A stretch of DNA of 64,000 nt from an uncultured bacterium (GTDB taxonomy: Bacteria > Patescibacteriota > Minisyncoccia > Phycocordibacterales > GWA1-40-21), in assembly GCA_963716205.1 (NCBI GenBank), contig OY970290.1, forward strand, positions 239,417 through 303,416, written 5' to 3'. Below, piece by piece: positions 6,661-36,903 of the stretch. Numbering within the stretch: position 1 is the first letter of the stretch; the number at the start of each line of letters is the position of its first letter. The notes under the pieces were generated by a model that was not told the DNA's origin, did not search any database, and was given only the letters and a program-made list of their open reading frames with translations. The position numbers were made by a program, and so were the translations under genes.

Positions 6661-6686
6661 TTTTGTTTGCGCATTCTGAAAAATTT

Positions 6687-7504: not shown

Positions 7505-7580
7505 GGGCCGCTAGCTCACTTGGTAGAGCGCTTCCATGGCATGGAAGAGGTAACCGGTTCGATCCCGGTGCGGTCCACCA
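7505..7580 (+). tRNA. tRNA-Ala (anticodon GGC), CCA encoded
   Basis: Acceptor gggccgc/gcggtcc with G3:U70, anticodon loop atggcat, T-loop ttcgatc, and a 3' ACCA. Confidence 0.85.
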
Positions 7581-10965: not shown

Positions 10966-11568
10966 ATGAAAGATATAAAGTCAGAATCCATTTTAGTAAT
11001 GAAAATCGGCTACCATGGAGCCGAAGATATTGACACTATTATTGCGAGAAAAAAAGAAGAAGAAAAAAAATGCGGTCAAACCTATTGGGGTTATGGCGGG
11101 GTATTATGCCACCCAATCCGAGTTGTCCAAAATTTTGCATCGCAAGTCGGAACGAAAAAAATCAAAGTTCTTTTCAGTGTTACCAAATCCCCATTCCAAT
11201 CTGATCCGACGCGAGCAAAATATTTTTCCGAGGACGGAAAAACATGGTCACCATTACATGACAGCGCCAATGTTCTGGCATCAAAATTTGCAATAGTTCT
11301 TCGTTCTCTCAAAGCATGTAAAAAGACAATAGTTCTTAACGATTATTGTGTCCCAATAGGTCCTTCAAAGGGGCGTCCCCTTAACGAATATCTAAGATTT
11401 CGTGTTGATAAAGCGGTCGGAACATTATCGAACAAAAAGAACCTGGGTCCCCTTAAGAGTCTTCCGATCCAGTTTGAGGCTGATTTGGTCCCGCCTTACG
11501 CCATCTTGGTGAGTCACCAGCATCAACCTGAGTCCCATCATCCATCACAAATTTCCCTTCCTTATTGA
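10966..11568 (+). CDS. hypothetical protein
   Basis: 200-aa ORF whose 3' end overlaps the convergent recombinase fusion by 116 nt. Confidence 0.4.
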   Translation: MKDIKSESILVMKIGYHGAEDIDTIIARKKEEEKKCGQTYWGYGGVLCHPIRVVQNFASQVGTKKIKVLFSVTKSPFQSDPTRAKYFSEDGKTWSPLHDSANVLASKFAIVLRSLKACKKTIVLNDYCVPIGPSKGRPLNEYLRFRVDKAVGTLSNKKNLGPLKSLPIQFEADLVPPYAILVSHQHQPESHHPSQISLPY

Positions 11569-15198: not shown

Positions 15199-15294
15199 CT
15201 TATCTCTGATTTTTTATTTTATAGAAATTCTGTTATAGTTAATCCGTAGTTGTGTCCGAGTTGGTTTGAAATCCCAAGTCAAGAAACTCCAAAT

Positions 15295-16317
15295 ATGAAA
15301 AATTATTTTTATTACAAAGATAAAAAAAAAGTCCTACCTGTTTTAGGTGAGGAAAAAAATAAACTGGCAAAAAAGAAACTCGACCACATTCTTAAGACCA
15401 AAAAGGAATTAATACCAGAACACTTTATCGAAAGGTGGTCAGAGGTGGCATTGTATAATCCTGGCGGTGATGTTGAAAAAGCAAATGCCATTTTGATCAA
15501 TCCGGAAGACGGCGCTTACGATCTATCGAACCCACTCAACGACATGACAGGAAAAGAATGGGTAAAGTTCAGTTGCAGTTGGTTTATTTTTAATGCTCTG
15601 CACAAAGACTTAAAGGAAGAGAGAGAAGTATCTCCAAATACTCAGGATCATCCAGCGACATTTTCTCCGACAATGATTGAGGGGTTTGTGAAATTCTTTA
15701 CAAAAAAGGGAGAAAACGTACTCGATCCTTTTTGCGGCATTGGAAGCACTATGGTTGCCTGCAAACGAACCGGAAGAGTCGGCTATGGTATTGAGCTTAA
15801 TAAAAAATATTATGATCTGTCGCTCAAGCGAACTCCGGAATTCAAAAAGACCATATTCAACGAAAATGCGGCCAATATCAAAAAACTGAATCTGCCAAAG
15901 ATTGCTTTTTCGATTTCATCGCCTCCGTACTGGGACATGCTTAACCGAAGTACCAAAGACTTCAAAAAGGATAGAACGAAAGACGGTTTCGATGTTAACT
16001 ATTCCGAAGCCGAAGAGGACTTGGGTAATATTGATAACTACGATCTGTTTTTGGAAAAATTAGCAAATATATATTTTGACATATTTGATCTACTCAAAGC
16101 CGGAGGGTATCTCGTGGTCATTGTGAAGAACCTTAAGAAAGAGGGTAAAATGTATCCATTGGCGTGGGACTTGGCTCGGCTTCTCTCGAAGAAGTATATG
16201 CTCAAAGATGAGAAGCTTTGGATACAAGACAAAGTCGGTCTTGCCCCCTACGGATACCCTTCAGCGTGGGCAAGCAACATACTGCATCATTACTGTTTAG
16301 TTTTTCAAAAGAAATAA
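15295..16317 (+). CDS. DNA methyltransferase (N4-cytosine/N6-adenine family, SPPY motif IV)
   Basis: Motif X/I HPATFSP..VLDPFCGIGST is followed by motif IV SISSPPYW. It overlaps or abuts the next MTase. Confidence 0.8.
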   Translation: MKNYFYYKDKKKVLPVLGEEKNKLAKKKLDHILKTKKELIPEHFIERWSEVALYNPGGDVEKANAILINPEDGAYDLSNPLNDMTGKEWVKFSCSWFIFNALHKDLKEEREVSPNTQDHPATFSPTMIEGFVKFFTKKGENVLDPFCGIGSTMVACKRTGRVGYGIELNKKYYDLSLKRTPEFKKTIFNENAANIKKLNLPKIAFSISSPPYWDMLNRSTKDFKKDRTKDGFDVNYSEAEEDLGNIDNYDLFLEKLANIYFDIFDLLKAGGYLVVIVKNLKKEGKMYPLAWDLARLLSKKYMLKDEKLWIQDKVGLAPYGYPSAWASNILHHYCLVFQKK

Positions 16318-16318
16318 C

Positions 16319-17947
16319 ATGTCTTTAACCATTTCACAAATTGTAAAAAACCTTGTCGATGTAAACGATATCAAACACGATCGGCAGTATTCGCGCGTGG
16401 CGAAACTTCATAAATATTGGTCAAGAAAACCTTGGTTTGTTATCGATCAATACATTGAGAAATATTCCAAAAAGGATCACGTCGTTTTGGACCCGTTTTG
16501 TGGTAGCGGAATTATTGGACTGCAATCAGTTTTAGCCAATAGAAATTTCATCGGTTACGACCTGAATCCTTTCGCTGTCTTTCTCGCAAAGAACTCTTTG
16601 CAGGTCGGTTATGACAACGCCTCTTTTGAAGAGGACTTCTCAGCGATTGAGCGGGCTGTTCGGGAGGAAATAATGCCTCTCTATGCGACCAAAGACAAAT
16701 ATATTCTGTATACCATTCTTGGAAAGAAAAATAGTAAGGACTATAACGCTGTCATCGCTGACAGTAATTTCCACAACAAGCAAAAAGTTAGTCTCTCTCA
16801 AGAATATCTAAATCCAATCATAAAATTTCCTAAGAACTTGAAGTATCCAGACAAGGACTTTCCAGAGAAATTTTATAAAGATCGTTTTTCTTATAAGGGT
16901 GTGAAGCGAGTGTCAGACATGTTCACCAAGAGGAACCTTCTTGCTTTGGCAACACTTCATATGGCTATCAACAAATTGCCTCTAAAAAACAGAGATTTGT
17001 TCATGCTTGCATTTACGAACACCCTATTGCATGTAAGTAAATTAAAAGCAGAAAATGTGCGGCCTCTTGGTGTAAATAACTTTTGGATTCCGGATGATTT
17101 TATTGAAGAGAATGTCTGGTGGAGGTTTGTAGACCGAGTCAATAATGTAAAAATGGCAAAGGAAGTTATTGCAGACAAGGCTTCCCGAAACGAGGTCTCG
17201 AAGCCTGTCTCTAAGATTTATAACAAGTCGTCTTTGAAGATGATTGAAATTAAGCCGGGTAGTGTTGACTATTTGATTACCGATCCTCCATACGGCGACA
17301 CCATCCAATACTCAGAGCTTTCATACATCTGGAATTGCTGGCTTGAGAAAGAGTTTGAGATTGAGAATGAAGTCATTATAAACCCTGTGCAAAAAAAGGG
17401 AGTGAACGAATACTACGATCAGCTCGCTACTTTTATCCGCGAAGCGAAAAGGGTTCTCAAAAAAGACGCTTACTTTACACTTGCATTCCACAACAAGGAT
17501 TTGAAAATTTGGATTAGCCTTGCCGAATTAATAAGAGATCATGGAATGGAATTGGTAGACATCTCTTCCTACGACACCTTCGGCAGTCCTTACAATAAAA
17601 ATTGGGCAAAATTTTCGCCCAAATCTGACTTCTATGTGACCTTTATAAATTCGAAAAATAAAGCAAGGGTTAAAAATAAAAAAGTTATCTATCCCAATGA
17701 TATTGCAGATGAGATCGTCAAATGCCTTGGCAAAAACAATGGCAAACTTTTTAATCTGAATAAGGCGTATGATCTGTTCGTAAGCGTAGTTATAAGTAAA
17801 ATATTTGATGGGTCGCAAGTCATTGAACACGAACGACTAAGTATTGAGAACATTATGAATCTTTTTCAGAACGTTCCACGAGATGAGAAGCATGGTAAGA
17901 AAAAGGAAACTGTTCAGATAAGTTTATTTGAACTACAACATGTTTAA
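16319..17947 (+). CDS. DNA methyltransferase (N6-adenine type, DPPY motif IV)
   Basis: N-terminal HKYWSRKP..VLDPFCGSGIIG (motif X/I) and LITDPPYGD (motif IV). 542 aa. Confidence 0.8.
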   Translation: MSLTISQIVKNLVDVNDIKHDRQYSRVAKLHKYWSRKPWFVIDQYIEKYSKKDHVVLDPFCGSGIIGLQSVLANRNFIGYDLNPFAVFLAKNSLQVGYDNASFEEDFSAIERAVREEIMPLYATKDKYILYTILGKKNSKDYNAVIADSNFHNKQKVSLSQEYLNPIIKFPKNLKYPDKDFPEKFYKDRFSYKGVKRVSDMFTKRNLLALATLHMAINKLPLKNRDLFMLAFTNTLLHVSKLKAENVRPLGVNNFWIPDDFIEENVWWRFVDRVNNVKMAKEVIADKASRNEVSKPVSKIYNKSSLKMIEIKPGSVDYLITDPPYGDTIQYSELSYIWNCWLEKEFEIENEVIINPVQKKGVNEYYDQLATFIREAKRVLKKDAYFTLAFHNKDLKIWISLAELIRDHGMELVDISSYDTFGSPYNKNWAKFSPKSDFYVTFINSKNKARVKNKKVIYPNDIADEIVKCLGKNNGKLFNLNKAYDLFVSVVISKIFDGSQVIEHERLSIENIMNLFQNVPRDEKHGKKKETVQISLFELQHV

Positions 17948-20072: not shown

Positions 20073-22451
20073 ATGAAAATTCGTAAAATCAAATCGATAA
20101 AGAACTACAAATCATTTACGGATTTTGAGTGGCAAAAGTTTTGCAAGAATAAAGATGGCCAAGAATCCATACTACAAAATTTTACTACTATTTTTGGCGA
20201 GAACGGATCAGGAAAATCTTCCGTCTGTGATATTTTAAAAAGCGTTTCTCAGTATCAGGACTTTCAAAATACTCCACCGGCTTTGACCGAAATAGAGCTG
20301 AATGATGGTAGTAATAATCAAATTCATAAATATGAAAACGGGGGATGGCTAACCCAAGTCGAGAAAAATTCGTTTCTATTTTTCGATGTTGATTTTATCA
20401 ATGCGAATGTTCATACACATGGTATTAGGTCAAGTAATCAGCAACAAGGCGCGCACACACAAAAAGCGGGTAAGCTAATAATTGATTTAGATGAACAGGC
20501 GAACAGTCTCAAAGAGATAGTTAAGACAAACCAAGACGCATTGGAAACACAAAAGATTATTAGCAAAGATATCTTAGGACAATCATTTACAGATAAAGAT
20601 AAAGAACTTTTCGAAATATATAAGGATGATGATGAAAAAACAAAACAAGAAAAACTTTCCAAAGCAGAAGAAGAACTAAAAACACTTGAAGAGGGATTAA
20701 CAAACCTTGAAAAGGTTAATAAAAAGTATAACGAAATAAATCTCATATCGGCAGTTGATCAAATAGCATTTTCTAATGATTTTTCTTCAAAAGAATTTTT
20801 CACTGAATTGTTTACCCGTCAAATAAAAGAAAAGGCACAAGATGATGCAGACGAGAAGATAAAAACGCATTTTGCAAAGCACAAACAGTTTATTGAGTCC
20901 GCCAAAGACCAAATACCCGAAAAATACAGCGACGAAAACTGTCCCCTTTGTATGCAACCGCTCAAAAACGCTATAAAAGTTATTGAGTACTACAGAACCG
21001 TCTTTGATCAAACCTATGAAAATGCTAAACAAAAATTTTTGGCCGACATTGAAACCGCAAAAAGCGAATTGGAAATAATAAAGTCAAACCTGAATTTATT
21101 GCCCTCTAAGGCAAATGAAGTATTTGACGCACTGGAAAAAATAAAAACAGATTTTGAAATCAAAGACATTTACAAGCTTGATGAAAAAACAAAATATACT
21201 GAAAAGTTTAGTGGTATTACCATAAAAGAAATTGATGATTCGCTCATGGCGTTAGAATCTCTGAAAAAAATTGAACGAAAGCAAGTGGAAATAGCAAATC
21301 TCTATGACGTGATCGCCGCAAAGCTTGTAAAAATCGTAAAATCAGTTGAGGGCATCAACGAACTTATTGCCGAAAAAAATAAATTGATAAGTGATTTCAA
21401 AAGTAAATATTCTGATCAAACCAAAATCACGGATGAACTACAGGAGAAAAATAAAAAGCAAATAGACTTGAACCAGTTAGTAGATTTTTTGAAAAGCGAA
21501 AAAATAAAACTCATAAAACTTCAAAACGATGCTTCTGCCAAAGAGAAAACATTATCGGAAAAATTGAAAAAGACACAGGAGGATTTGAAAACATATCTTG
21601 CCAAAACAATTCCAGAGAGTGTTATTTCACAAATGATAATTATTCTTAATAAGTTTAATTTGGGCTTCACCCTTGAACATATCAAACCCGCAGCCAATAC
21701 AAAGGAATATTCTTTTTCGTTCAAAATTACTGATCTAAAAGGAAATGAACGAGAAATGAAGGATGGATTATCAGAAGGTGAGAGACAGCTAATTTCTCTT
21801 GCCTTCTTCTTTGCGATTAATGAAAATTTGCAGAGCAAGGATCAAACCGTCTTAATTTTTGATGATCCGATAACAAGCTTAGACTCGCCAAACTTAAAAA
21901 TTCTTGCAGAGTTGATACACAAGGAGACTCAGGAATTTTCTCAGGTTATAGTTTTTACTCACCATCCACTATTTTTTAAGTATTTAGCAAAATGTGTAAA
22001 TCCAAATCCAAGCAAGTTTGGCGTTTTAAAGAATGTAGAAAAATTCGGTGGAAGTTTTATCTTTGTTGACCCTGGATTTGATTTGACCTCTGAAATCCAA
22101 AAATGCAATCAAGAAATTACTCAAAATGCCAAAAACGGTGATCTAAAACCAGAGGAAATTGCCTTAAAATATGGACAACTTTTACGATTGGCAGTTGAAA
22201 AATTTATCAAAAATGACTTACTGATGTGGGATAAGGAAAATAACTTTGATGGCATAACAGAAAATTTGAAACAAGGAAAAAATAAAATAGCTAAACTTTC
22301 CGATGACGATTTGGAAGTGATAACAAATATGTATAAATATTGTAATTACTCCAATCTCTTACACGCTGATAAGGAAACACCTTCCGCACTTTCTGAACTA
22401 ATGACACACATTGATAAATTTGATCAAATCTTGGATAAAGTGAAGGTTTAA
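20073..22451 (+). CDS. Rad50/RloC-like ABC-type ATPase with coiled coil and CxxC hook; putative abortive-infection/anticodon-nuclease-type defence protein
   Basis: Walker A FGENGSGKSS and about 450 aa of predicted coiled coil containing DENCPLCMQPL. The ABC signature is LSEGERQLISLAFFFA, Walker B is VLIFDDPITSLD, and the H-loop is VIVFTHH. A roughly 110-aa C-terminal domain follows. Confidence 0.65.
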   Translation: MKIRKIKSIKNYKSFTDFEWQKFCKNKDGQESILQNFTTIFGENGSGKSSVCDILKSVSQYQDFQNTPPALTEIELNDGSNNQIHKYENGGWLTQVEKNSFLFFDVDFINANVHTHGIRSSNQQQGAHTQKAGKLIIDLDEQANSLKEIVKTNQDALETQKIISKDILGQSFTDKDKELFEIYKDDDEKTKQEKLSKAEEELKTLEEGLTNLEKVNKKYNEINLISAVDQIAFSNDFSSKEFFTELFTRQIKEKAQDDADEKIKTHFAKHKQFIESAKDQIPEKYSDENCPLCMQPLKNAIKVIEYYRTVFDQTYENAKQKFLADIETAKSELEIIKSNLNLLPSKANEVFDALEKIKTDFEIKDIYKLDEKTKYTEKFSGITIKEIDDSLMALESLKKIERKQVEIANLYDVIAAKLVKIVKSVEGINELIAEKNKLISDFKSKYSDQTKITDELQEKNKKQIDLNQLVDFLKSEKIKLIKLQNDASAKEKTLSEKLKKTQEDLKTYLAKTIPESVISQMIIILNKFNLGFTLEHIKPAANTKEYSFSFKITDLKGNEREMKDGLSEGERQLISLAFFFAINENLQSKDQTVLIFDDPITSLDSPNLKILAELIHKETQEFSQVIVFTHHPLFFKYLAKCVNPNPSKFGVLKNVEKFGGSFIFVDPGFDLTSEIQKCNQEITQNAKNGDLKPEEIALKYGQLLRLAVEKFIKNDLLMWDKENNFDGITENLKQGKNKIAKLSDDDLEVITNMYKYCNYSNLLHADKETPSALSELMTHIDKFDQILDKVKV

Positions 22452-25390: not shown

Positions 25391-25466
25391 CGACGATGAA
25401 TTTTGTAAGACAAGGTCCACACAGAGTTTTTTATTTTATCGGAATATGTTAGAGTAGCAAACGCCT

Positions 25467-25537
25467 GGGCCTATAGTATAGTGGTAGCACGCGTCATTCG
25501 CATTGACGAGACGGCAGTCCGATTCTGCCTAGGTCCA
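25467..25537 (+). tRNA. tRNA-Ala (anticodon CGC)
   Basis: Acceptor gggccta/taggtcc with G3:U70, anticodon loop ttcgcat. The T-loop is tccgatt, with C at position 55. Confidence 0.7.
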
Positions 25538-25575
25538 CAAAAGCAGAAAATCTAAACTGCTTGATAAATAAATTT

Positions 25576-25647
25576 CGGAGCGTGGTGTAACGGTAACATG
25601 CATGATTCGGGTTCATGTGACTCCGGGTTCAAATCCCGGCGCTCCGA
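25576..25647 (+). tRNA. tRNA-Pro (anticodon CGG)
   Basis: Acceptor cggagcg/cgctccg, anticodon loop ttcgggt, T-loop ttcaaat. Confidence 0.8.
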
Positions 25648-25693
25648 CAAATGATTTTCAAATTTGGAAAAAATCCTGTATAATCACACAGAG

Positions 25694-27166
25694 ATGAAAA
25701 ATTTCTTTTCAAAAATAAAAATGTTTGCGCAGAAAAATAAATGGTGGACTGCGCTTATTTTTCTTGTCATTATCATCATACTTTTCATGATTTTCGGCAA
25801 GAAAAAATCTTCCGGACTGGAAACGGTGACAGTAGAGAAGCACGATATCACTCAAGTTGTCAGTGCCACGGGAAATGTCACTCCGCTTTCAGATCTTGAT
25901 CTTGCATTTCAGGCAAGCGGACAAGTCTCGCAGGTTGCGGTAGCTGTAGGCGATACCGTGTATCAAGGAGAATATCTCGCTTCGCTTTCAAATGCCGATC
26001 TTTCCGCTGCTCTCGAACAAGCAAAAGCCGGATTGCAGATTGAACAAGCAAAACTTGCCGACATGCAAAATGGAACTCCGCCGGAAGAATTGGCAGTTGC
26101 GCAGAATTCTTTGGATAACAGCATCACGAGCGCTTATACGACCTGTGATAATGCCATACACAATGATATCGATCAAATGTTTGAGAATCCGAAAACTCCA
26201 TCAGCCAAGATCATCATTCCGATGAATAATTTTCAACTGCAAAATACTATCGACAACGATCGATATACCATTGAACTGACGCTTACTGATTGGAATGCAA
26301 GCACTTCAGTTTCCGCGACATCAGCACTTGCTTCAATTGATGCAATAAAAAGTTTTGTTGATGAGATCGCTCTCGCACTCAATGAATCTTTGGGAGATTC
26401 AAGTATTTCGCAAGGAACAATTGATTCATATAAAACTATTGTTTCTGCTGACCGCGCAGCCATAGATCTTGCTCGTTCGAATATCACAACAGCAGAGGCA
26501 AATTATAATCTTGAACTCGCCGGCAACACTCCGGACTCCATCGCGGCGCAGCAAGCTGCGGTAGCGCAGGCGCAGGCAAATATTGATGCGGCACAGGCGC
26601 AACTCGATAAATCAATCATCTATTCACCGATCGACGGTGTCATTACAAATGTAAATGCAAAAGTCGGGGAGACGATGCAGCAGGGCGATGCCGCCATTTC
26701 CGTCATTTCATACGGACAATATGATATCGAATCGTATGTTCCGGAAGCCGATATCGCAAAAGTAAAAATCGGCGATCCTGCCACGACTACACTTGATGCT
26801 TATGGTTCCGATACTTTTTTCCCGACATCCGTCATTAAGATCGATCCGGGAGAGACAATTCTCGAAGATGTGCCGACATACAAAGTCACTTTGGCTTTTG
26901 CTTCAACTTCCGATCCGAGAATCAAATCCGGAATGACAGCGAATCTGGATATTCTGACCGATCAAAAAAATGATGTGCTTGCCGTTCCATCAAGATCCGT
27001 GTATGAAGATGGCACCCAGGAATACGTAGAGCTGATTGATCCTGCAAATCAAAAAAATACAATACAAACAGCGATCACGGTAGGCATACGCGGCGTCGAC
27101 GGATATGAGGAAATAGTTTCCGGTCTCAAAGAAGGCGATGTGATTCTCGCTTCGCCAAACATGTAA
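25694..27166 (+). CDS. HlyD/MacA-family periplasmic adaptor (membrane fusion protein) of an ABC exporter
   Basis: N-terminal TM anchor, long coiled-coil hairpin, and C-terminal beta-barrel region. It is followed by MacB-like ATPase and permease genes. A TATAAT at 25680 suggests the upstream in-frame TTG at 25664 is promoter, not coding. Confidence 0.7.
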   Translation: MKNFFSKIKMFAQKNKWWTALIFLVIIIILFMIFGKKKSSGLETVTVEKHDITQVVSATGNVTPLSDLDLAFQASGQVSQVAVAVGDTVYQGEYLASLSNADLSAALEQAKAGLQIEQAKLADMQNGTPPEELAVAQNSLDNSITSAYTTCDNAIHNDIDQMFENPKTPSAKIIIPMNNFQLQNTIDNDRYTIELTLTDWNASTSVSATSALASIDAIKSFVDEIALALNESLGDSSISQGTIDSYKTIVSADRAAIDLARSNITTAEANYNLELAGNTPDSIAAQQAAVAQAQANIDAAQAQLDKSIIYSPIDGVITNVNAKVGETMQQGDAAISVISYGQYDIESYVPEADIAKVKIGDPATTTLDAYGSDTFFPTSVIKIDPGETILEDVPTYKVTLAFASTSDPRIKSGMTANLDILTDQKNDVLAVPSRSVYEDGTQEYVELIDPANQKNTIQTAITVGIRGVDGYEEIVSGLKEGDVILASPNM

Positions 27167-27170
27167 AAAC

Positions 27171-27890
27171 GTGGCGCTTATCGAAACAAAAAATTTGTGG
27201 AAAGTCTACGACAATGAAGGGACAAAAACCGAAGCACTTCGAGGAGTTTCCCTCGATATTCAAAAAGGTGAATTTGTGGCAATCATGGGTCCTTCCGGTT
27301 CTGGAAAATCAACTTTGCTTCAAATTCTCGGACTTTTGGATAATCATACCGATGGCACCTATATTTTTTCCGACAAAGATGTCGGTTCATATAATCCGGA
27401 AGAAATTGCACGGATGCGCAACGAAAAAATGGGTTTTGTTTTCCAAGCATTCAATCTTTTGCCGCATGCATCCGTTCTCGATAATGTAAAGTTGCCGCTC
27501 ATGTATTCGAATATTCCCGAGGAGGAGTGGGATGTCCGCGCGCAGGAAGCGGTCATTGATGTCGGGCTTGAACACCGGATGTATCATCAGGCAACGCAGC
27601 TTTCGGGCGGTGAGAAACAAAGAGTGGCAATCGCCCGCGCACTGGTGAACGATCCGGAAGTTATTTTTGCCGACGAGCCGACGGGAAACCTGGATTCAAA
27701 ATCCGGCGAGGCGGTCATCGATATCATCCAAAAATTAAATACCGAAATGGGTCATACGATTATTTTGATTACCCACGAAACATACACGGCTGAATACGCG
27801 CAGAGGATTATCCGCTTGCATGATGGGCAGATACTCAGTGATGAAAAAGTTGTAAACAGAAAAACAAAAGCCGATGATTTTATAAAATAA
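27171..27890 (+). CDS. ABC transporter ATP-binding protein (MacB/LolD family)
   Basis: Walker [12 protein letters not shown], signature [15 protein letters not shown], and Walker [12 protein letters not shown]. Confidence 0.9.
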
Positions 27891-27891
27891 T

Positions 27892-29130
27892 ATGAAATTA
27901 AGGCATAGCATACAAACAGCAATTATCGGACTGACGACGCACAAGTCGCGCTCGGCATTGACGGTTCTTGGCGTTGTCATCGGCATTACATCAATTATTC
28001 TTGTCATGTCGCTCGGACAAGGCGCGCAGAATTTAATTCTTAGCCAGGTTAACGGGCTTGGCGCGACAACAATCGCTGTTATTCCGGGGAAAATTTCAGA
28101 TGGTCCCTCAAGCGCAGCACAAACGCTTTCCGATTCGCTCAAAGATTCGGATCTGACTGCCCTTGAAACAAAAGCAAATGTACCGTACGCAAAAGAGGTC
28201 ATGCCGATGGTTTTAGGAGGAGGAAATGCTATCTATGGAAATCAAGTGTATCAGATCAGCTTGTACGGCGGCGGAACACTCATGGCAGATATGTTTAATA
28301 TTACGGTTGGAGAAGGAGATTTTTTTACTGATGACGATGTGCTTTCAAAATCGCAGGTCGCGGTCATTGGCTATAAAGTAAAAGACCAGCTTTTTGGCGG
28401 CGATGAAGCAGTCGGACAGAAAATCAGAATTGGCAACAACACGTTCAAAGTCATCGGCGTTCTGCCGCAAAAAGGTCAATCCGGTCTAATTAATTTTGAT
28501 GACGCAGTCATCATGCCATATACGACCGCTCAAACGTATGTTCTCGGCATCAATTATTTCAACAGGATTATTGTTGAAGCGGATACCCAAGATCATATCG
28601 ATGCTACCGCAGCGGATATTACCGATACGTTGAGAAATGATCACAATATCACAGATCCAACACAGGATGATTTTTCCGTAGAAACATCGGCTGATATTGC
28701 ATCAACACTTGGCACAGTGACAAGCGCTCTGACGGCGTTTCTCGCGGCGGTAGCGGCGATATCCCTTGTTGTCGGAGGAATCGGCATTATGAATATCATG
28801 CTTGTATCGGTGACGGAGCGGACACGCGAAATCGGCCTGCGAAAAGCGCTTGGCGCCTGCGATCACGATATTCTGATCCAATTCTTACTTGAAGCGGTTA
28901 TGCTGACGGCGACCGGCGGAATCATCGGCATCTTGCTCGGAGGATTTCTTTCCTATGTCATATCCATTATTCTTACAGATGTGCTTGCTTTGAGCTGGAC
29001 ATTTATTTTCCCGTGGAATGCGGCAATACTCGGCATTATCGTTGCAAGTTTGGTCGGTCTGGTATTTGGTATTTATCCGGCACGCCAGGCATCGAAGAAA
29101 AGTCCGATGGAAGCATTGAGATATGAGTAA
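27892..29130 (+). CDS. ABC transporter permease (MacB/FtsX-type, four TM helices plus a large periplasmic domain)
   Basis: 412 aa with FtsX-like C-terminal TM helices. It is in an operon with the ATPase. Confidence 0.85.
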   Translation: MKLRHSIQTAIIGLTTHKSRSALTVLGVVIGITSIILVMSLGQGAQNLILSQVNGLGATTIAVIPGKISDGPSSAAQTLSDSLKDSDLTALETKANVPYAKEVMPMVLGGGNAIYGNQVYQISLYGGGTLMADMFNITVGEGDFFTDDDVLSKSQVAVIGYKVKDQLFGGDEAVGQKIRIGNNTFKVIGVLPQKGQSGLINFDDAVIMPYTTAQTYVLGINYFNRIIVEADTQDHIDATAADITDTLRNDHNITDPTQDDFSVETSADIASTLGTVTSALTAFLAAVAAISLVVGGIGIMNIMLVSVTERTREIGLRKALGACDHDILIQFLLEAVMLTATGGIIGILLGGFLSYVISIILTDVLALSWTFIFPWNAAILGIIVASLVGLVFGIYPARQASKKSPMEALRYE

Positions 29131-29171
29131 AATATGATACAATTTTTTTGTTATCAATTTAAATAAAATAT

Positions 29172-29402
29172 ATGGGATTTTTTAAAAACTTAGTGATGAA
29201 ACAGGCAATGAAATCGCAAATGAAAGGTCTACCGAAAGACCAGCAGGAAAAAGTGCTTGCGGCCATAGACAAAGATCCGGAATTTTTCGAAAATATAGCT
29301 AAGCAAATTAAGCAAAAAGAAAAGGAGGGGAAAGGCAAAATGGAAGCATCGATGCTCGTCATGCGGGAGAATCAAGACAAGTTGAGAAAGCTGATGATGT
29401 AA
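29172..29402 (+). CDS. hypothetical small K/E-rich protein
   Basis: 76-aa ORF followed by a strong bidirectional terminator. Confidence 0.35.
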   Translation: MGFFKNLVMKQAMKSQMKGLPKDQQEKVLAAIDKDPEFFENIAKQIKQKEKEGKGKMEASMLVMRENQDKLRKLMM

Positions 29403-29419
29403 AGAAAGAGAAAAAAGAA

Positions 29420-29452
29420 AAGCCCGGCGTGCAAGCGCGCCGGGCTTTTATT
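29420..29452. terminator. bidirectional rho-independent terminator
   Basis: Stem gcccggcg/cgccgggc flanked by A-run and T-run, between convergent genes. Confidence 0.8.
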
Positions 29453-29515
29453 GCAATAAAAAAAGCCGTTCCCCTCATAAAGGAACGGCCTTCGAATCTC
29501 GACGAAAGAATTTGG

Positions 29516-30583
29516 TTAGAAAGAAAAAGGAATACTGAGACTGCACTGCACATCACCAACGCTGTCATATTCCTCTGGACCAACACCAGGCAGCAATACC
29601 GGCGATTGATTCATCCTGAGTTCGGCGAGAACGGAACATCTAACATCCGTTCCGAATTCAACCCCAGCAGCGAGAACAGGTGTTACGCTGTTATCATTGC
29701 CAATCGGGAATTTTACACCACCCTGACTCGGATTTCCTGAATACCTCACATTTCCAGCGCCTAGACCAAAAACTAAAGACGCAGAATCTGTGAGTCGTTG
29801 GTAATTCTTTACCATCAAAGTGATCGGATGGTATACCGTAAACCCGTTATAACTTGAACCATAATCGTTCATGCCAACGGGATGACCGGTCGTATCTATC
29901 GACAAGCTCAAAGCATAATCTTGACATCTGATTTGAGCGAGAAGATTGAATTCCAACAATGTTGATGTACTCGGAAATTCCATTCCCGGTTGTAAAACTC
30001 CTGATCCGGAAAATTCAAACGGCATAAAACCCAACCCAAGTTGTCCCTCCCAGCCGCTTTTTTTCTTGACGACAATCGGCGTCGGAGTTCCAGTAACGAC
30101 TTTCGTTGGTGCGGAACTCGTGACAACTACTGTGGTTATTGGCGTCGATGATACAACCGGAGTCGGTGTCGCTAACACAGTCAGCTGTGCATTAAGCAAA
30201 GCTCGCGTTTTTGGCCCGACAAATCCGGAAGCAGTGAGTCCATGATCTTGTTGATAGTGCACCACGGCCTCTTTTGTCATATTCCCGAAATATCCGGTCG
30301 GCGTGACCTTCAATATCATTTGCAAGTTGACAACTTTGTCACCTGTGTTTTTGAAACCGAAATTCGAAGTGAATTGATATACCGGTTTCAATGCAGGTGA
30401 GACTGATGTCGGAACAGCGATTGGTACAGCGGTCGGAGTGTTTGATACCCCGTTCCGATGTATGTCCAGACTGACCGTAACACCATCCGCTCGCACTTGC
30501 GCACTGACCGCAAAAAGCAGCAGTGAAACAATTAATAGCAACATAAACTTTTTCATTTCTTCCTCCTTGTTAATGTGCAACAA
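29516..30583 (-). CDS. secreted protein with a peptidoglycan-binding-like segment and a Thr/Pro-rich linker
   Basis: Signal peptide MKKFMLLLIVSLLLFAVSAQVRA. AVVHYQQDHGLTASGFVGPKTRALL resembles a PG-binding repeat. The C-terminus ends ..SIPFSF. Confidence 0.5.
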   Translation of the reverse strand: MLHINKEEEMKKFMLLLIVSLLLFAVSAQVRADGVTVSLDIHRNGVSNTPTAVPIAVPTSVSPALKPVYQFTSNFGFKNTGDKVVNLQMILKVTPTGYFGNMTKEAVVHYQQDHGLTASGFVGPKTRALLNAQLTVLATPTPVVSSTPITTVVVTSSAPTKVVTGTPTPIVVKKKSGWEGQLGLGFMPFEFSGSGVLQPGMEFPSTSTLLEFNLLAQIRCQDYALSLSIDTTGHPVGMNDYGSSYNGFTVYHPITLMVKNYQRLTDSASLVFGLGAGNVRYSGNPSQGGVKFPIGNDNSVTPVLAAGVEFGTDVRCSVLAELRMNQSPVLLPGVGPEEYDSVGDVQCSLSIPFSF

Positions 30584-31073
30584 ACTAAATCAAAAATCCC
30601 TTCATCTTCATGGGGGATTCAAAATCAACTGACACTATCATATATTACATTATGTAAAGTGTCAAGTTATTTTTTGATAAATTTTTTAAGACTTTCCAAT
30701 AAAGGACATAAAAATTATAAAGGACATTTATGATAAATTGTAAAATGTCCTTTATAAATAAGCTTTATTTCGAATTCGATATTTTTTGATATATTTTTCA
30801 GAGAATGATACTTGGAGTAGTGTATTCACTTGACAAGATAATTCTTTGTGATACGATGTTGTTGTATAAAGCTCTTTATGAAGATTTTTTACATAGATTT
30901 TGTAAAAAAGTTCTTTATTCAACTCAATGTTTGCGTTTCTTTGTTTGAAACTCATATTGTTAGTTTCAGTTCAGTTTTTTGATCAAGTTTTATTTTAAAG
31001 TCATTTAAAAATTCAATTTAATTTAGCAATTACAACCACCATCGTGCGTTTGTTTTTAACCACCAAAATTATT

Positions 31074-31928
31074 ATGTTTACAAATTATCAAAAAATAAGC
31101 AGAGCCATAGGCAATTTTACAATAGTTGTCCTTTTAGCTGTTGCATCACTCAGTTTTGCTTCAGTAGCCCATGCGGACTACTTTGCAACAACAACATTGA
31201 CCTCAACAAGTTCAATGAATTTCTTTACAGTTCCTGCTGGAGTTACCAGTATTAATGCGACTCTTACTGCAGGCGGTGGCGGTGGCGGTGGCGGAGCATA
31301 CTCGTTTGGAGGTGGCGGTGGCGGAGCAGGAGGAGTATATTCTGTAGAAGCGATTCCAGTTATTCCTGGACAAATAATCGCATATACAGTTGGAGCAGGT
31401 GGTGTTGGTGGCACTAGTGGCTTTATAAATGTTGCAGGTGGAAATGGTGCTGATGGAGGAAATACCGTTTTGACTCTTGGAGCATCAGGTATTATGGAAA
31501 TTGGTGGAAAAGGAGGAATGGGAGCTATCTACGGAAATTCAAATAGTGGAAAAGGTGGACTCGCAGGCGGTCTTGGTGGAACAAATGGTACTAACGGTGA
31601 TGACCAGATAAATACTCAAAGAAATTACGGAGGCACTGGTGGTTCAACACCAAACGGTCTTGCCGGAATCGGAGGATATGGTGATGCTAATACATACAGA
31701 CTTCCAACAACTGGAACAAATGGTGCTGGAGGCGGAGCAGGAAGCGGATGGGCTTCTGGTGATGGCGTCTATCGTGATGCTGGTGCAAATGGCGGAGATG
31801 GTTCAATAGTACTTAGTTATTTTGCCGATCTTACTGCCTCCTGTTATTACCATTACTGGTTCAAGCACTCTTACACTTCAAGCAAGTTCAACTGGTGTTT
31901 ATGTAGATGCCGGAGCAACTGCACTTGA
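31074..31928 (+). CDS. glycine-rich N-terminal segment (signal peptide plus GGxGG repeats), probably the N-terminal part of the giant surface protein separated by a frameshift near 31820
   Basis: Signal peptide MFTNYQKISRAIGNFTIVVLLAVASLSFASVAHA then a Gly-rich domain. The frame ends in nonsense (..CYYHYWFKHS..) while the +1 frame continues as the adhesin. Confidence 0.5.
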   Translation: MFTNYQKISRAIGNFTIVVLLAVASLSFASVAHADYFATTTLTSTSSMNFFTVPAGVTSINATLTAGGGGGGGGAYSFGGGGGGAGGVYSVEAIPVIPGQIIAYTVGAGGVGGTSGFINVAGGNGADGGNTVLTLGASGIMEIGGKGGMGAIYGNSNSGKGGLAGGLGGTNGTNGDDQINTQRNYGGTGGSTPNGLAGIGGYGDANTYRLPTTGTNGAGGGAGSGWASGDGVYRDAGANGGDGSIVLSYFADLTASCYYHYWFKHSYTSSKFNWCLCRCRSNCT

Positions 31929-34900
31929 TAATGTTGATGGAGTGGTGCCGGTAACAACAACTTTTAATAATGTAAATCTTGCGGCAACAGGAACCTATTC
32001 TGTTGTCTATTCTGCTACCGATGCGGCTGGAAATACAGCTACAACTTCACGAACGGTGATTGTCATTGATACGACAGCGCCAGTTATAACTTTTGTTCCG
32101 GGCACGCAAGTTTTTGAAGCGACAGGCGCAACAACAACTCCAATATTAGCACCAATTATAGCTACGGATGCCTTTGGTCCAAGCCCGGTTATTACCTATT
32201 CACCCATTAGTTTTGGTCTCGGAACCACAACAGTCACTTGGACAGCAACTGATCCAAATACTGGAAATACTGTTATCGCCACATCCAGCGTTGTTATAAA
32301 GGACACAACTGCACCAGTAATTGTCCTTAACGGAACAAATCCGATGAATGTCCTTTATGGGTCTGTATTTATAGACCCAGGAGCGACAGCTTATGACCTT
32401 GTAGATGGAACAACTACAGTTACAACGACTTTTGATAATGTAAATACTGCAGCAACAGGAACATATTCTGTTGTTTATTCTGCTGTCGATTTGTCAGGAA
32501 ATGCAACAAGTTCAACACGAATTGTGAATGTTCTTGCAACTGCACCAGTTCTTACAACACTTTCTATTTCACCATTAAATTTAACAACAACAGTCGGCAC
32601 CACAACACAGTTTGTGGCTACAGCACTTGATCAATACGGAAATCCAATTGCAGCTTCCGTTTTCTGGGGACCATCAAATCCTTCTGTTGGAACAATCGGT
32701 TTCAATACAGGCTTGTTTAATGCAGTTTCAGTTGGAACAACGACAATCACGGCAATCAGCGGAGCATTTAATGCTACTACAACAGTCACCGTTGTTCCCC
32801 TTGTTGCCACGTCTTCACCTTCAGCGGTGACAATTACCAATTCAACATTAGGCGGAACATTTTTTGCTTCTTATATTCCAACACTTGCTGAAACTACAGT
32901 TGCACCAATTGGAACGACAACTGGCACTACGACAATTACAAATTCTACATTGTCTGGATCATGGAACGTAAATAATTCAACACTTACAACAACTACGCTC
33001 GGCACTTCAACATTGGATAATGTAATTTCTACAAATTCTGTCATTACAAATTCCAATGCTACAAATTGTACAATTCTTAATTCATCTATCGATGGTTATT
33101 TACTTTCAAATTGCTATGTTGCGAACTCAACCTTTGATCCTGGAGCAATTGTAAATTCAACCACGACAAGCGTATCAGGATCAGATGCATTTATATACGA
33201 TTCAACAGTTAGTAATTCAACCGTTTCAACATCAACTATCCATGGATCAACTATAGCTGATTCAATAGTTACGTTTAGCTCCGTTGCCACATCTACGATT
33301 ACGAATAATTCAAATGTTGCAAGTTCAACAATAATTTTGTCAAATATTGATAATTCGCAAGTTACGAATTCAACGATTACCAATAGCACGATAATTCTTG
33401 GTTCAGTGATTTCATCTTCAACATTGACCAATGTCACTGCTGCAAGTTCAACAATCACGAATACAACTTTGTCTGATGCGACAACTACAAATGCAGTCAT
33501 TGATAGCGGTACTATATATAGTGGAACAATTACGATTGGCGGAAATACATTTACTGTTACTGAACCAACCTTGCTTTCAGATTTGATTGAACCGACAATA
33601 ACTTCTGTTACGCCAAATTCTGGCTCAATTAATGGAGGAACAAATATTATTATTGATGGAACTAACTTTGCATCAAGTACAGCAACCGTTGGCGGAGTTT
33701 TGGCAACAAATATTATTGTTGCAAGCAGCACAGAAATTACAGCAACAACTCCAGCTGGAGCAGCGGGTGCAGCTGATGTCGTTGTTACAAACACTAATGA
33801 TGGAGGCATTGCCACTTCAACTGGAGGATTTATGTATACATCAGGCGGAGGATCGGGAAGTTCAACCAGTTCCGATGACACCTTGAGCAACTTGACGGTC
33901 TCAGCCGGAACGCTCGCACCAGCTTTTGCCGCAGGAACACTTTCATATACTGACACATTGCCAGCAGGAACCGTTATCATTCCGACAGTCACGGCGACGA
34001 CAAATGATGCAAACGCAACCGACACAATTACTCAAGCATCCGCTTTGCCGGGATCAGCAACCATTGCAGTCACGGCACAAGATGGAACGACCACACAAAC
34101 ATATACCGTTGCTTTCACGGTATCAGGCGGAGGATCGGGAAGTTCAACCAGTTCCGATGACACCTTGAGCAACTTGACGGTCTCAGCCGGAACGCTCGCA
34201 CCAGCTTTTGCCGCAGGAACACTTTCATATACTGACACATTGCCAGCAGGAACCGTTATCATTCCGACAGTCACGGCGACGACAAATGATGCAAACGCAA
34301 CCGACACAATTACTCAAGCATCCGCTTTGCCGGGATCAGCAACCATTGCAGTCACGGCACAAGATGGAACGACCACACAAACATATACCGTTGCTTTCAC
34401 GGTATCAGGCGGAGGATCGGGAAGTTCAACCAGTTCCGATGACACCTTGAGCAACTTGACGGTCTCAGCCGGAACGCTCGCACCAGCTTTTGCCGCAGGA
34501 ACACTTTCATATACTGACACATTGCCAGCAGGAACCGTTATCATTCCGACAGTCACGGCGACGACAAATGATGCAAACGCAACCGACACAATTACTCAAG
34601 CATCCGCTTTGCCGGGATCAGCAACCATTGCAGTCACGGCACAAGATGGAACGACCACACAAACATATACCGTTGCTTTCACGGTATCAGGCGGAGGATC
34701 GGGAAGTTCAACCAGTTCCGATGACACCTTGAGCAACTTGACGGTCTCAGCCGGAACGCTCGCACCAGCTTTTGCCGCAGGAACACTTTCATATACTGAC
34801 ACATTGCCAGCAGGAACCGTTATCATTCCGACAGTCACGGCGACGACAAATGATGCAAACGCAACCGACACAATTACTCAAGCATCCGCTTTGCCGGGAT

Positions 34901-36819
34901 CAGCAACCATTGCAGTCACGGCACAAGATGGAACGACCACACAAACATATACCGTTGCTTTCACGGTATCAGGCGGAGGATCGGGAAGTTCAACCAGTTC
35001 CGATGACACCTTGAGCAACTTGACGGTCTCAGCCGGAACGCTCGCACCAGCTTTTGCCGCAGGAACACTTTCATATACTGACACATTGCCAGCAGGAACC
35101 GTTATCATTCCGACAGTCACGGCGACGACAAATGATGCAAACGCAACCGACACAATTACTCAAGCATCCGCTTTGCCGGGATCAGCAACCATTGCAGTCA
35201 CGGCACAAGATGGAACGACCACACAAACATATACCGTTGCTTTCACGGTATCAGGCGGAGGATCGGGAAGTTCAACCAGTTCCGATGACACCTTGAGCAA
35301 CTTGACGGTCTCAGCCGGAACGCTCGCACCAGCTTTTGCCGCAGGAACACTTTCATATACTGACACATTGCCAGCAGGAACCGTTATCATTCCGACAGTC
35401 ACGGCGACGACAAATGATGCAAACGCAACCGACACAATTACTCAAGCATCCGCTTTGCCGGGATCAGCAACCATTGCAGTCACGGCACAAGATGGAACGA
35501 CCACACAAACATATACCGTTGCTTTCACGGTATCAGGCGGAGGATCGGGAAGTTCAACCAGTTCCGATGACACCTTGAGCAACTTGACGGTCTCAGCCGG
35601 AACGCTCGCACCAGCTTTTGCCGCAGGAACACTTTCATATACTGACACATTGCCAGCAGGAACCGTTATCATTCCGACAGTCACGGCGACGACAAATGAT
35701 GCAAACGCAACCGACACAATTACTCAAGCATCCGCTTTGCCGGGATCAGCAACCATTGCAGTCACGGCACAAGATGGAACGACCACACAAACATATACCG
35801 TTGCTTTCACGGTATCAGGCGGAGGATCGGGAAGTTCAACTCCGGTCACGTCGATTAATATTGTTCCGGCAAATCCGACAATCGCACCAGGAGCCACTCA
35901 AACATTTACTTTGACTGATCAGAATAATAATCCGCTTTCAACGACAACCGCATGGTCAAGTTCAGATGCAACAATCGGCACAATTGATCCGGCGAGCGGA
36001 TTGTTCAATGCAATTGCAGTCGGACAAACAACAATTACTGCTACAGTTGATGCATTAACTGCAACAACGGTAGTGACAGTTTCTACAAGCACACCGGTAA
36101 CTCCGCCAGCTCCAGTAAGTTCGGGAGGGGGAGGCGCAACGCAGCATACTCCACCAACAATTGTAATTCTTGGCGATAATCCAGTTTCAATTGTTGCCGA
36201 TTCAGCATACACGGATGCTGGAGCAAAAGCATACGATGCCAATGACAATACAATCACTCAAAATATTATTGTCTCAAACAACGTCAACACTGCGGTCGCA
36301 GGATCATATACAGTAAAATATACTGTTACAGATAGTCATGACAATACAACAACGGCAACACGAACGGTGAATGTTACGCCAGCACCAGCAGCAGTTGCAA
36401 CGACAAGCACAGCTACAACCGGAGGAACAAATGTTACCGCTTCAACTTCTTCAACATCAGTTTCAACAAATACAGCAACAGTTCCTGCTACGACAACTAT
36501 AACCTTGACACAAACACCGGTGGTAACAACCGGAGGAAATGGAGTTACTTCAAACAATACTGGTACCAATAGTATTCCGTTTGTTGATCTTGGAAATACA
36601 CTTCCGGTGAAAACAGTTGCGACAACTTCCGTTTCAACGACGACAAGCCCTGCAACATCAAGCGTTGCCGAAACGGTTTCAACTACAACTGCGACAAATC
36701 TCTTGGCGACAGTAGCTCTCGCATTCTCAAGTATTTCGAAAAATTTGATTGCGATTATCCTTTCTATCATCGTTCTCATATTTGCAGTGTTTGCGGTCTA
36801 TAAAGTTCAGAGAGATTAA
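31822..36819 (+). CDS. giant cell-surface adhesin-like protein
   Basis: Domains visible in the translation: DUF5011 Ig-like domains (PVITF..GATA.D.VDG..TYSVVYSA.D..GN), Big_2 (ISPLNLTTTVGTTTQFVATALD), an N-S-T-rich repeat region, IPT/TIG (PTITSVTPNSGSINGGTNIIIDGTNF), seven identical 94-aa cadherin-like beta-sandwich repeats (LSNLTVSAGTLAPAFAAGTLSYT...), Big_2, DUF5011, and a Thr-rich stalk. It ends in a C-terminal TM anchor IAIILSIIVLIFAVFAVYKVQRD. Confidence 0.8.
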   Translation: MPILLPPVITITGSSTLTLQASSTGVYVDAGATALDNVDGVVPVTTTFNNVNLAATGTYSVVYSATDAAGNTATTSRTVIVIDTTAPVITFVPGTQVFEATGATTTPILAPIIATDAFGPSPVITYSPISFGLGTTTVTWTATDPNTGNTVIATSSVVIKDTTAPVIVLNGTNPMNVLYGSVFIDPGATAYDLVDGTTTVTTTFDNVNTAATGTYSVVYSAVDLSGNATSSTRIVNVLATAPVLTTLSISPLNLTTTVGTTTQFVATALDQYGNPIAASVFWGPSNPSVGTIGFNTGLFNAVSVGTTTITAISGAFNATTTVTVVPLVATSSPSAVTITNSTLGGTFFASYIPTLAETTVAPIGTTTGTTTITNSTLSGSWNVNNSTLTTTTLGTSTLDNVISTNSVITNSNATNCTILNSSIDGYLLSNCYVANSTFDPGAIVNSTTTSVSGSDAFIYDSTVSNSTVSTSTIHGSTIADSIVTFSSVATSTITNNSNVASSTIILSNIDNSQVTNSTITNSTIILGSVISSSTLTNVTAASSTITNTTLSDATTTNAVIDSGTIYSGTITIGGNTFTVTEPTLLSDLIEPTITSVTPNSGSINGGTNIIIDGTNFASSTATVGGVLATNIIVASSTEITATTPAGAAGAADVVVTNTNDGGIATSTGGFMYTSGGGSGSSTSSDDTLSNLTVSAGTLAPAFAAGTLSYTDTLPAGTVIIPTVTATTNDANATDTITQASALPGSATIAVTAQDGTTTQTYTVAFTVSGGGSGSSTSSDDTLSNLTVSAGTLAPAFAAGTLSYTDTLPAGTVIIPTVTATTNDANATDTITQASALPGSATIAVTAQDGTTTQTYTVAFTVSGGGSGSSTSSDDTLSNLTVSAGTLAPAFAAGTLSYTDTLPAGTVIIPTVTATTNDANATDTITQASALPGSATIAVTAQDGTTTQTYTVAFTVSGGGSGSSTSSDDTLSNLTVSAGTLAPAFAAGTLSYTDTLPAGTVIIPTVTATTNDANATDTITQASALPGSATIAVTAQDGTTTQTYTVAFTVSGGGSGSSTSSDDTLSNLTVSAGTLAPAFAAGTLSYTDTLPAGTVIIPTVTATTNDANATDTITQASALPGSATIAVTAQDGTTTQTYTVAFTVSGGGSGSSTSSDDTLSNLTVSAGTLAPAFAAGTLSYTDTLPAGTVIIPTVTATTNDANATDTITQASALPGSATIAVTAQDGTTTQTYTVAFTVSGGGSGSSTSSDDTLSNLTVSAGTLAPAFAAGTLSYTDTLPAGTVIIPTVTATTNDANATDTITQASALPGSATIAVTAQDGTTTQTYTVAFTVSGGGSGSSTPVTSINIVPANPTIAPGATQTFTLTDQNNNPLSTTTAWSSSDATIGTIDPASGLFNAIAVGQTTITATVDALTATTVVTVSTSTPVTPPAPVSSGGGGATQHTPPTIVILGDNPVSIVADSAYTDAGAKAYDANDNTITQNIIVSNNVNTAVAGSYTVKYTVTDSHDNTTTATRTVNVTPAPAAVATTSTATTGGTNVTASTSSTSVSTNTATVPATTTITLTQTPVVTTGGNGVTSNNTGTNSIPFVDLGNTLPVKTVATTSVSTTTSPATSSVAETVSTTTATNLLATVALAFSSISKNLIAIILSIIVLIFAVFAVYKVQRD
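33841..35839 (+). repeat. seven perfect tandem copies of a 282-bp unit (plus 25 nt of an eighth) inside the adhesin gene
   Basis: Unit starts at 33841, 34123, 34405, 34687, 34969, 35251, and 35533. The eighth begins at 35815 and diverges after gaagttcaac. The copies appear 100% identical. Confidence 0.95.
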
Positions 36820-36835: not shown

Positions 36836-36866
36836 CGGCGCGCGCAAAGCGGGCCGCTTTTTTATT
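36836..36866 (+). terminator. GC-rich hairpin plus T-run terminator
   Basis: ggcggcgcgcgcaaagcgggccgc followed by ttttttatttg. Confidence 0.6.
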
Positions 36867-36903
36867 TGTATTTTATGAATTTTCTGATAAAGTAGTTTTT
36901 ACC

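Follow-up and report, generated by a model that had tools for sequence, protein, structure and literature searches.

What function is served by a tandem repeat whose seven copies do not differ by a single base, and can it be trusted as it stands in one assembly? This question is raised by a locus in a stretch of 64,000 nucleotides (hereafter the window, meaning the whole stretch that was analysed) from an uncultured small-genome bacterium of the Patescibacteria, or candidate phyla radiation (CPR), which is placed in GTDB within Patescibacteriota, Minisyncoccia, Phycocordibacterales, GWA1-40-21. The window comprises positions 239,417 to 303,416 of contig OY970290.1 in the NCBI GenBank assembly GCA_963716205.1. 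The repeat lies in the gene for a giant surface protein, which a first-pass annotation made from the DNA alone had described as an adhesin of roughly 1,900 amino acids with a C-terminal anchor. On balance, and with due caution, we consider it likely that the array is a stalk segment of variable length within a giant surface protein that consists of a single chain and belongs to the type known as Periscope Proteins.

Tandem Repeats Finder detected a perfect array at 33840..35840 on the forward strand, with a period of 282, 7.1 copies, 100% matches, 0% indels, and a score of 4002, and a direct periodicity script followed the 282-base period without mismatch over exactly 2001 bases. The array consists of seven full units (33840-34121, 34122-34403, and so on to 35532-35813) with 0 mismatches, plus 27 terminal bases. 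Seven identical 282-bp tandem repeats had already been reported by the first-pass annotation at 33841-35839, a description that holds apart from the coordinates, each end of which was off by one base (an immaterial difference). The 27-mer that opens each unit (ATCAGGCGGAGGATCGGGAAGTTCAAC) is present eight times in the window vs. 0 times in 100 shuffles, and chance origin of the array is not an issue. Its last copy (35814..35840), which repeats the linker-coding sequence, forms together with 33840-33866 a direct repeat that bounds the amplified unit; in the 282 bases following the array, 185 positions differ from the unit. No second long tandem repeat was found in the 64-kb window. Since 282 equals 3 x 94, the array is in frame with the surrounding open reading frame (ORF), which has 1665 codons and extends over 31822..36819 on the forward strand. 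An ORF on the minus strand (33114..34025) was treated as a by-product of biased composition. The lack of any substitution implies that the expansion was very recent or that the copies are continually homogenised.

Each unit encodes 94 amino acids, comprising a 13-residue Gly/Ser linker (SGGGSGSSTSSDD) and one domain, for which assignment as a Cadherin-like beta-sandwich is supported by sequence comparison. The score of the unit against PF12733 was 26.6 bits, above the curated cut-off of 24.2 that Pfam applies (E 8.3e-6, model positions 1-87 of 89), and a sequence match in the PDB was obtained to the Cadherin-like domain of a solved beta-galactosidase (8q2h, E 6e-4). Both results agree with the 94-residue cadherin-like beta-sandwich module proposed initially.

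The same domain is widespread. An index-free search of 1.84 billion representatives identified 4260 proteins with the unit's domain at E<=1e-3, and the best 150 of these 4260 all carry 3-41 matched stretches. The five representatives that were scanned proved to be PF12733 arrays with type IX secretion system (T9SS) or S-layer homology (SLH) anchors, and arrays of PF12733 on surface proteins are therefore common. Such T9SS- and SLH-anchored proteins of other phyla (e.g., P0249, P0250, P0301, and P0362) resemble the giant protein in having head-to-tail arrays, with 4-41 matched stretches, in large secreted or surface proteins, but their copies have diverged and their anchors and partner domains are different. 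Among the best 150 array-bearing proteins, the mean amino acid identity of adjacent copies was at most 0.89 (median 0.50) and thus in no case reached 0.95. Perfect arrays cannot be built by short-read assemblies, and databases are therefore biased against them. A word-indexed homologue search with the unit returned one weak match and missed even P0011, an orthologue that does contain the unit.

No ORF of 1,900 amino acids is present in the window. The region is instead covered by two overlapping ORFs in different frames. The first, 31044/31074..31928, codes for a signal peptide together with a Gly_rich_2 domain; the second, 31822..36819 (1665 aa), contains the array. Compared to its orthologues, the window follows their junction sequence in frame 0 as far as ADLTA and then, starting with PVITITG, in frame +1, whereas the orthologues are uninterrupted at this point (LSYTADLTAPV in P0002 and VSYGADLTAPVITIL in P0011). 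Because the match switches frame between ADLTA and PVITITG, the break can be ascribed to a single extra base near 31836. Independent data were provided by Logan contigs (k=31) of the run ERR11563597, one of which (L007, 8402 bp) corresponds to positions 25466..33869 of the window with 99.96% identity. This contig contains ACTGCTCCTG where the window has ACTGCCTCCTG, reads through the junction as LSYFADLTAPVITITG, and keeps the giant gene open from its ATG to the contig end (931 codons). The difference is one extra C at 31836/31837 on the forward strand, a +1 shift that splits the gene into parts of 284 and 1665 amino acids. When one base is removed, an open frame of 1914 amino acids appears, with no other stop or frameshift in 5.7 kb; the initial estimate of roughly 1,900 residues was therefore right for the corrected gene, although no such frame is open in the window as written.

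In all likelihood, the extra C is not the normal state of the gene but an assembly (consensus) error or a null allele carried by a minority, and a fixed pseudogene is less likely. Several other explanations were rejected. A frameshift at the T4 run 31820-31823 was dropped, since the orthologue junctions and L007 point to the CC of 31836/31837; programmed +1 frameshifting was dismissed in view of the lack of a slippery or stop context at this site and the existence of an allele without the extra base; and widespread indel errors in the window were discounted, as the three other overlapping ORF pairs tested are separate genes. L007 is an imperfect reference too, its two other differences from the window falling in a tRNA-Pro gene and breaking the acceptor stem. 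Both differing positions of this tRNA-Pro(CGG), which spans 25576-25648 in the window and 110-182 in L007, are in the 5' acceptor arm, and the stem of 7 bp is perfect in the window version and not in the Logan version. Either strain microdiversity or a short-k contig error may account for this difference.

Hydropathy analysis of the corrected 1914-residue protein revealed only two hydrophobic segments, namely an N-terminal signal at residues 8-35 (ending in SVAHA, followed by DY) and a C-terminal helix at approximately residues 1886-1910 followed by KVQRD. The transmembrane (TM) anchor predicted for the C-terminus is thus indeed a single helix, and it is accompanied by a signal peptide. All features described below are on the forward strand. 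The 5' part of the gene (31074..31836, frame 0) encodes this signal peptide, whose cleavage-like site is AHA before DY, and a Gly_rich_2 domain (PF21722, 50.6 bits, E 3.4e-13) that the first-pass annotation had missed. Both are shared with the orthologue P0007. The glycine-rich domain also matches phage tail-fibre families in PHROGs (phrog_863, 4e-15; phrog_6202, 3.7e-5), and it is likely to be the binding tip of the protein. Our literature search retrieved nothing on PF21722 or on the run ERR11563597.

The tip is followed by a series of Ig-like domains. The first DUF5011/Bact_surface_Ig-like domain (31846..32064; PF16403, 50.6 bits; also a weak HYR match) is separated from the second (32320..32532; 58 bits) by a module of about 84 residues (32068..32319) that is HYR-like by eye only, matches no family at E<=0.01, and is kept in the orthologues. 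A first Big_2 domain (32563..32793; PF02368, 38.5 bits) leads into a stretch rich in Asn, Ser, and Thr (NST; 32785..33591), which shows a 5-residue periodicity, two invariant Cys, and 15 N-x-S/T sequons. An AlphaFold2 (AF2) model of this stretch, computed from a 14-sequence alignment, has a pLDDT of 81.2, a pTM of 0.77, and 3-residue strands every 5 residues. When the model was compared with the PDB by Foldseek, all significant matches were beta-helices or solenoids (Ag43, PfbA, AlgE4, TibA, and pentapeptide-repeat proteins) with low TM-scores of 0.15-0.41; PfbA is a pneumococcal adhesin. The Pfam matches of the region to Pentapeptide_4 and CfAFP are weak, and its score of 17.6 bits is below the cut-off of 38 for the Pentapeptide family. 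On the predicted structure, the stretch is a beta-helix or regular beta-solenoid, as the first-pass annotation had also proposed. It is succeeded by an IPT/TIG domain (33592..33831; PF01833, 59.2 bits, E 4e-16), the perfect array, a second Big_2 domain (35842..36081; 50.3 bits), and a third DUF5011 domain (36166..36375; 72.7 bits). Pfam annotation thus bears out the initial calls of DUF5011 (PF16403), Big_2, and TIG, which it finds three times, twice, and once, respectively.

The C-terminal end of the protein consists of a low-complexity spacer rich in Thr, Ser, and Val (36376..36729; about 110 residues), which has no family match but shares a conserved IPF(V/I)DLGN motif in an alignment with three orthologues, followed by the TM helix (LIAIILSIIVLIFAVFAVY), the short charged tail KVQRD, and the stop codon (36730..36819; hydropathy and alignment). 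The spacer is presumed to be the wall-spanning segment. The C-terminus (...SSISKNLIAIILSIIVLIFAVFAVYKVQRD) contains no LPXTG motif and matches no NCBIfam sorting-signal model, and sortase anchoring of the giant protein was rejected for these reasons. Two motifs before the helix are conserved between the window (36520-36816) and the orthologues. One, TIPF(V/I)(D/N)LGN, lies some 60 residues ahead of the helix, and the other, S(I/M)(P/S)K(N/D), is found where the helix begins. Both match none of the NCBIfam models and might be a sorting or processing signal. Elsewhere in the window, an ice-binding-like/DUF7507/DUF11 protein (5002..6660) ends in LPNTG, a TM segment, and KKRKI, and a sortase gene (6579..7286) comes directly after it. 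The organism therefore has sortase anchoring, which the giant protein does not use. With regard to expression, a promoter-like site (TTGACA-16-TACGAT, with TG) is located at 30830..30857, approximately 215 nt 5' of the ATG, by consensus match only; the count of such sites in the region is not above that in shuffles, and support for this one is weak. A terminator-like hairpin with a T tract lies directly 3' of the stop codon (36846..36870; one site, shuffle mean 0.3).

Comparison with related genomes allows the array to be placed in an evolutionary context. By its RpoB, which shows 84-87% identity to that of named MAGs, the organism falls within Patescibacteria/Paceibacterota. Gly_rich_2 and DUF5011 are joined in one protein of about 1900-2350 amino acids in the nine homologues that rank highest and in the majority of the top sixteen. 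Positional orthologues, each a single ORF, were found in three related genomes: P0007 (2354 aa), P0001 (1875 aa), and P0011 (2084 aa). The order of genes at the locus is HlyD-ABC-FtsX, a small ORF, a minus-strand ORF, the giant gene, and then YchF downstream; YchF adjoins the giant gene in L002 and is two genes further on in L010, and the flank shown of L001 stops short of it. The orthologues resemble the window protein in their locus, in the N-terminal ~850 residues (signal peptide, Gly_rich_2, DUF5011, Big_2, and beta-helix), and in the C-terminal succession of DUF5011, spacer, and TM helix, but differ in the middle, which is a Big_3/Big_2 cassette in P0007 and PKD plus approximately ten DUF5011 domains in P0001, and in P0011 consists of duplicated Big_2 blocks with a single Cadherin-like unit between them. 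In P0011, exactly one copy of the unit (75% amino acid identity) is flanked by linkers, GGTGTST and NGTGTST, that resemble those of the window. P0008, P0013, P0014, and P0037 contain one or two copies, never in tandem. Because no relative has more than two copies of the unit, or any in tandem arrangement, the array is a lineage-specific amplification, and the recent expansion suggested by the first-pass annotation is upheld as both recent and specific to this lineage. A scan of GTDB genomes with the corrected protein detected only distant Big_2-type matches in unrelated organisms.

Tandem or dispersed repeats inside the orthologous genes are 60-98% identical (68-93% for tandem repeats), and none is a perfect array. 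Large dispersed duplications of whole Big_2/Big_3 blocks with 93-98% identity were observed in the orthologous giant genes (L010, 9587-12255; L001, 14036-16135), including 284 nt of L010 that are found at both 11192 and 11972 with 98% identity. Because the orthologues hold Big_2/Big_3 block duplications of their own, duplication of cassettes within the gene is a habit of the family.

The array also stands out in composition. The GC content at third codon positions (GC3) of the unit is 0.415, equal to that of housekeeping genes in the window (0.40-0.46), while the rest of the giant gene has values of 0.21-0.28 or, at the widest, 0.12-0.30, and the GC3 change points coincide with the array edges. 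The giant gene is richer in AT at third positions than its neighbours in 4/4 related genomes. Either import of the cassette from a different gene or lineage or a bias due to recombination may account for its composition.

The first-pass annotation had warned that the repeat is an assembly hazard, and rightly, as the k=31 contigs of ERR11563597 stop at both array edges: L007 ends at 33869, 30 nt inside the array, and L009 begins at 35811, 30 nt before the array exit, and is 100% identical to the window from there onward. Both edges therefore agree to the base with independent contigs. Breaks at these positions are the expected behaviour of a k=31 graph at a tandem repeat with copies that have more than the 27-bp linker in common. 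They independently support both boundaries and the presence of at least two copies in tandem, and they give no copy number. Exact-protein look-ups returned no record for either window ORF (three alternative starts) or for the YchF product, and neither of two metagenome scans, one for an exact 41-mer taken from the unit and the other for a degenerate 41-mer of TATTNDANATDTIT, gave a match. At the start of YchF (window 36909-36920), L009 and L008 overlap by only 12 nt and not by k-1, and L008 has one mismatch to the window, which suggests polymorphism or low coverage in ERR11563597.

In Periscope Proteins, each of which is a single chain attached to the cell surface, folded domains of very high identity are arrayed into a stalk, whose repeat number changes by homologous recombination and sets the projection of an N-terminal functional domain (PMC8201768, PMC9704523). 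Examples include Sgo_0707 (SHIRT), SasG/Aap (G5-E), Rib/alpha-C, and Esp (Whelan et al. 2021, PMC8201768; review PMC9704523). The giant protein is similar to them in several respects: it is a single chain with signals for surface tethering, it has a candidate functional region at the N-terminus and a putative anchor at the C-terminus, and its in-frame units would alter its length by recombination. Its repeated domains, which are probably folded, form an array of 7 x 94 residues that are 100% identical over 2001 bp, compared with the more than 50 residues and very high identity, also at the DNA level, by which Periscope repeats are recognised. In contrast to the known examples, the anchor is a plain TM helix and not an LPXTG/sortase signal, the host is an uncultured Patescibacteria bacterium, and the repeat domain, PF12733, does not occur in the part of Dataset S1 of PMC8201768 that was available as text. 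Judging from sequence features, the giant protein would work like a Periscope Protein and is probably a new example of that class.

A second group for comparison is the fibrillar adhesin-like proteins (Monzon et al. 2021, PMC8286594; PMC9210967). These are also long multidomain proteins with Ig-like or beta-helix stalk domains (Big_2, TIG, and DUF5011-type), a distinct terminal domain, a signal peptide, and a surface anchor, but none of their listed adhesive domains was detected in the giant protein. The only functional hint for its candidate tip, Gly_rich_2, is the similarity to phage tail-fibre PHROGs. A stalk of identical repeats in a fibrillar surface protein is a feature of an ordinary kind in an unusual organism from a group that has been little studied.

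The simplest origin of the array, and its action as a Periscope-type stalk, may be pictured as follows. A single module flanked on both sides by the same 27-bp linker-coding direct repeat would have been the starting point, and a first duplication could have arisen by unequal exchange or slippage between the two 27-bp copies. The resulting perfect 282-bp repeats would then be substrates for rapid expansion by further unequal homologous recombination, each exchange adding or removing exactly 94 residues and keeping the frame. The protein would be exported by means of its N-terminal signal peptide and tethered by the single C-terminal TM helix and the Thr/Ser-rich spacer. From the membrane outward, DUF5011 and Big_2 would be followed by the seven linker-plus-Cadherin-like modules, TIG, the NST beta-helix, further Ig-like domains, and the glycine-rich tip, and cells in a population could differ in the distance of the ~920-residue N-terminal part from the surface. 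Adhesion, rod-like extension, actual length variation, and the attachment organelle proposed by the first-pass annotation are what we infer for this protein. A bolder proposal, to which we attach little credence, is that the locus is a fast switch of reach or host range in an episymbiont: the middle would be rebuilt through recombination at short Gly/Ser/Thr linker-coding repeats, cassettes would be swapped between lineages, an imported cassette marked by its GC3 would be undergoing amplification and contraction here, and the frameshifted allele would be a segregating off-state.

Several observations weigh against a stalk of variable length. The protein lacks the sortase signal of typical Gram-positive Periscope members, and the variation in repeat number that defines the class has not been observed for it, as only one assembly spans the array and neither exact-protein look-ups nor the two metagenome scans yielded a second. 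The single-sequence AF2 model of the unit had a pLDDT of 48 and was unusable, so that its fold is read from sequence evidence, with a Pfam score 2.4 bits above the cut-off. In addition, the 13-residue Gly/Ser linkers, if flexible, would produce a tether and not a rod, the jump in GC3 at the array edges is not explained by simple in-place duplication, and an intact protein would not be made from the copy in the window, where the gene is frameshifted as written.

It is conceivable, if on the whole unlikely, that the repeat is real and that its copy number of seven, its perfect identity, or both were made by assembly or polishing, the true units being fewer, more numerous, or slightly divergent. 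The copy number comes from only one long contig (681,747 bp), the short-k contigs cannot get through the array, L007 breaking off at 33869 and L009 resuming at 35811, indels elsewhere separate the window from independent contigs and show that its consensus is not flawless, and none of the 150 best array-bearing proteins reaches a mean adjacent identity of 0.95. However, long reads span 2 kb with ease, the window is free of N and of further long repeats, the array edges match the independent data to the base, only 4 differences were found over 13.4 kb of independent sequence, and perfect arrays are expected to be absent from databases, since short-read assemblies cannot build them. That the whole gene is a genuine pseudogene in this lineage, with a real frameshift and an array that is a neutral recent expansion in decaying sequence, seems improbable to us. 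The extra C is indeed present in the window, the second ORF would be without a signal peptide, and the Logan contig that lacks the extra base is itself imperfect, its tRNA-Pro variant breaking an acceptor stem that pairs perfectly in the window; yet an intact allele exists in ERR11563597, 1914 codons are open once one base is removed with no other stop or frameshift in 5.7 kb, all remaining domains score well, and the overlapping ORF pairs that were tested in the window include no further split gene.

A different function for a real array has also to be weighed, namely that the modules are multivalent ligand-binding (e.g., carbohydrate-binding) domains whose amplification raises avidity for a host or substrate polymer and not reach. 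Domains of the PF12733 type are found as accessories on glycoside hydrolases, for example on the beta-galactosidase 8q2h, in array-bearing proteins they occur alongside Glucodextran_B, PA-IL-like, and further domains related to sugars, and the repeated domains of fibrillar adhesins can be both stalk and adhesive (PMC8286594). Nevertheless, no binding site or ligand of the unit is known, the array is in the membrane-proximal half of the protein behind ~920 residues of other domains and a tail-fibre-like tip, and the orthologues work with one copy of the unit or none, and we regard a gain in avidity as a rather doubtful purpose of the amplification. A variable-length stalk of the Periscope type is the reading that we retain.

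Some features of the window are remote from the giant gene. The region 1230-25650, between a D-Ala-D-Ala ligase gene (221..1189) and a tRNA-Ala/tRNA-Pro pair (25467-25648), resembles one or more integrated elements. It includes three large serine recombinases on the minus strand (1241..2563, 7516..9066, and 11453..13984), each beside or near a tRNA gene, as well as two DNA methylases (15250..17947), an AAA_13 ATPase (20073..22451), and many ORFs without a family match; in the relative L001, aconitase and isocitrate dehydrogenase come after Ddl instead of this element-like stretch. The serine recombinase at 11453-13984 (minus strand, 843 aa) has a C-terminal BpsA_C domain (branched-chain polyamine synthase C-terminal, 86.8 bits), and we know of no description of such a fusion.

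Beyond the first-pass annotation, the analysis adds a frameshift, a tip that resembles phage tail fibres, an orthologous locus that is hypervariable, a 27-bp repeat at the array boundaries, and an anomaly in GC3. The one-base frameshift would lead annotation pipelines to call a pseudogene or two genes at this locus. To our knowledge, the attachment of Patescibacteria (CPR) cells to hosts or surfaces is very poorly understood, and the locus provides a concrete candidate for attachment that is conserved in position and composed of a tail-fibre-like tip, a beta-helix, and a probable stalk of perfect repeats. If the giant protein does work as a Periscope Protein, as it probably does, this type of design would be extended to a new phylum and a new repeat domain, with a TM helix instead of a sortase anchor.

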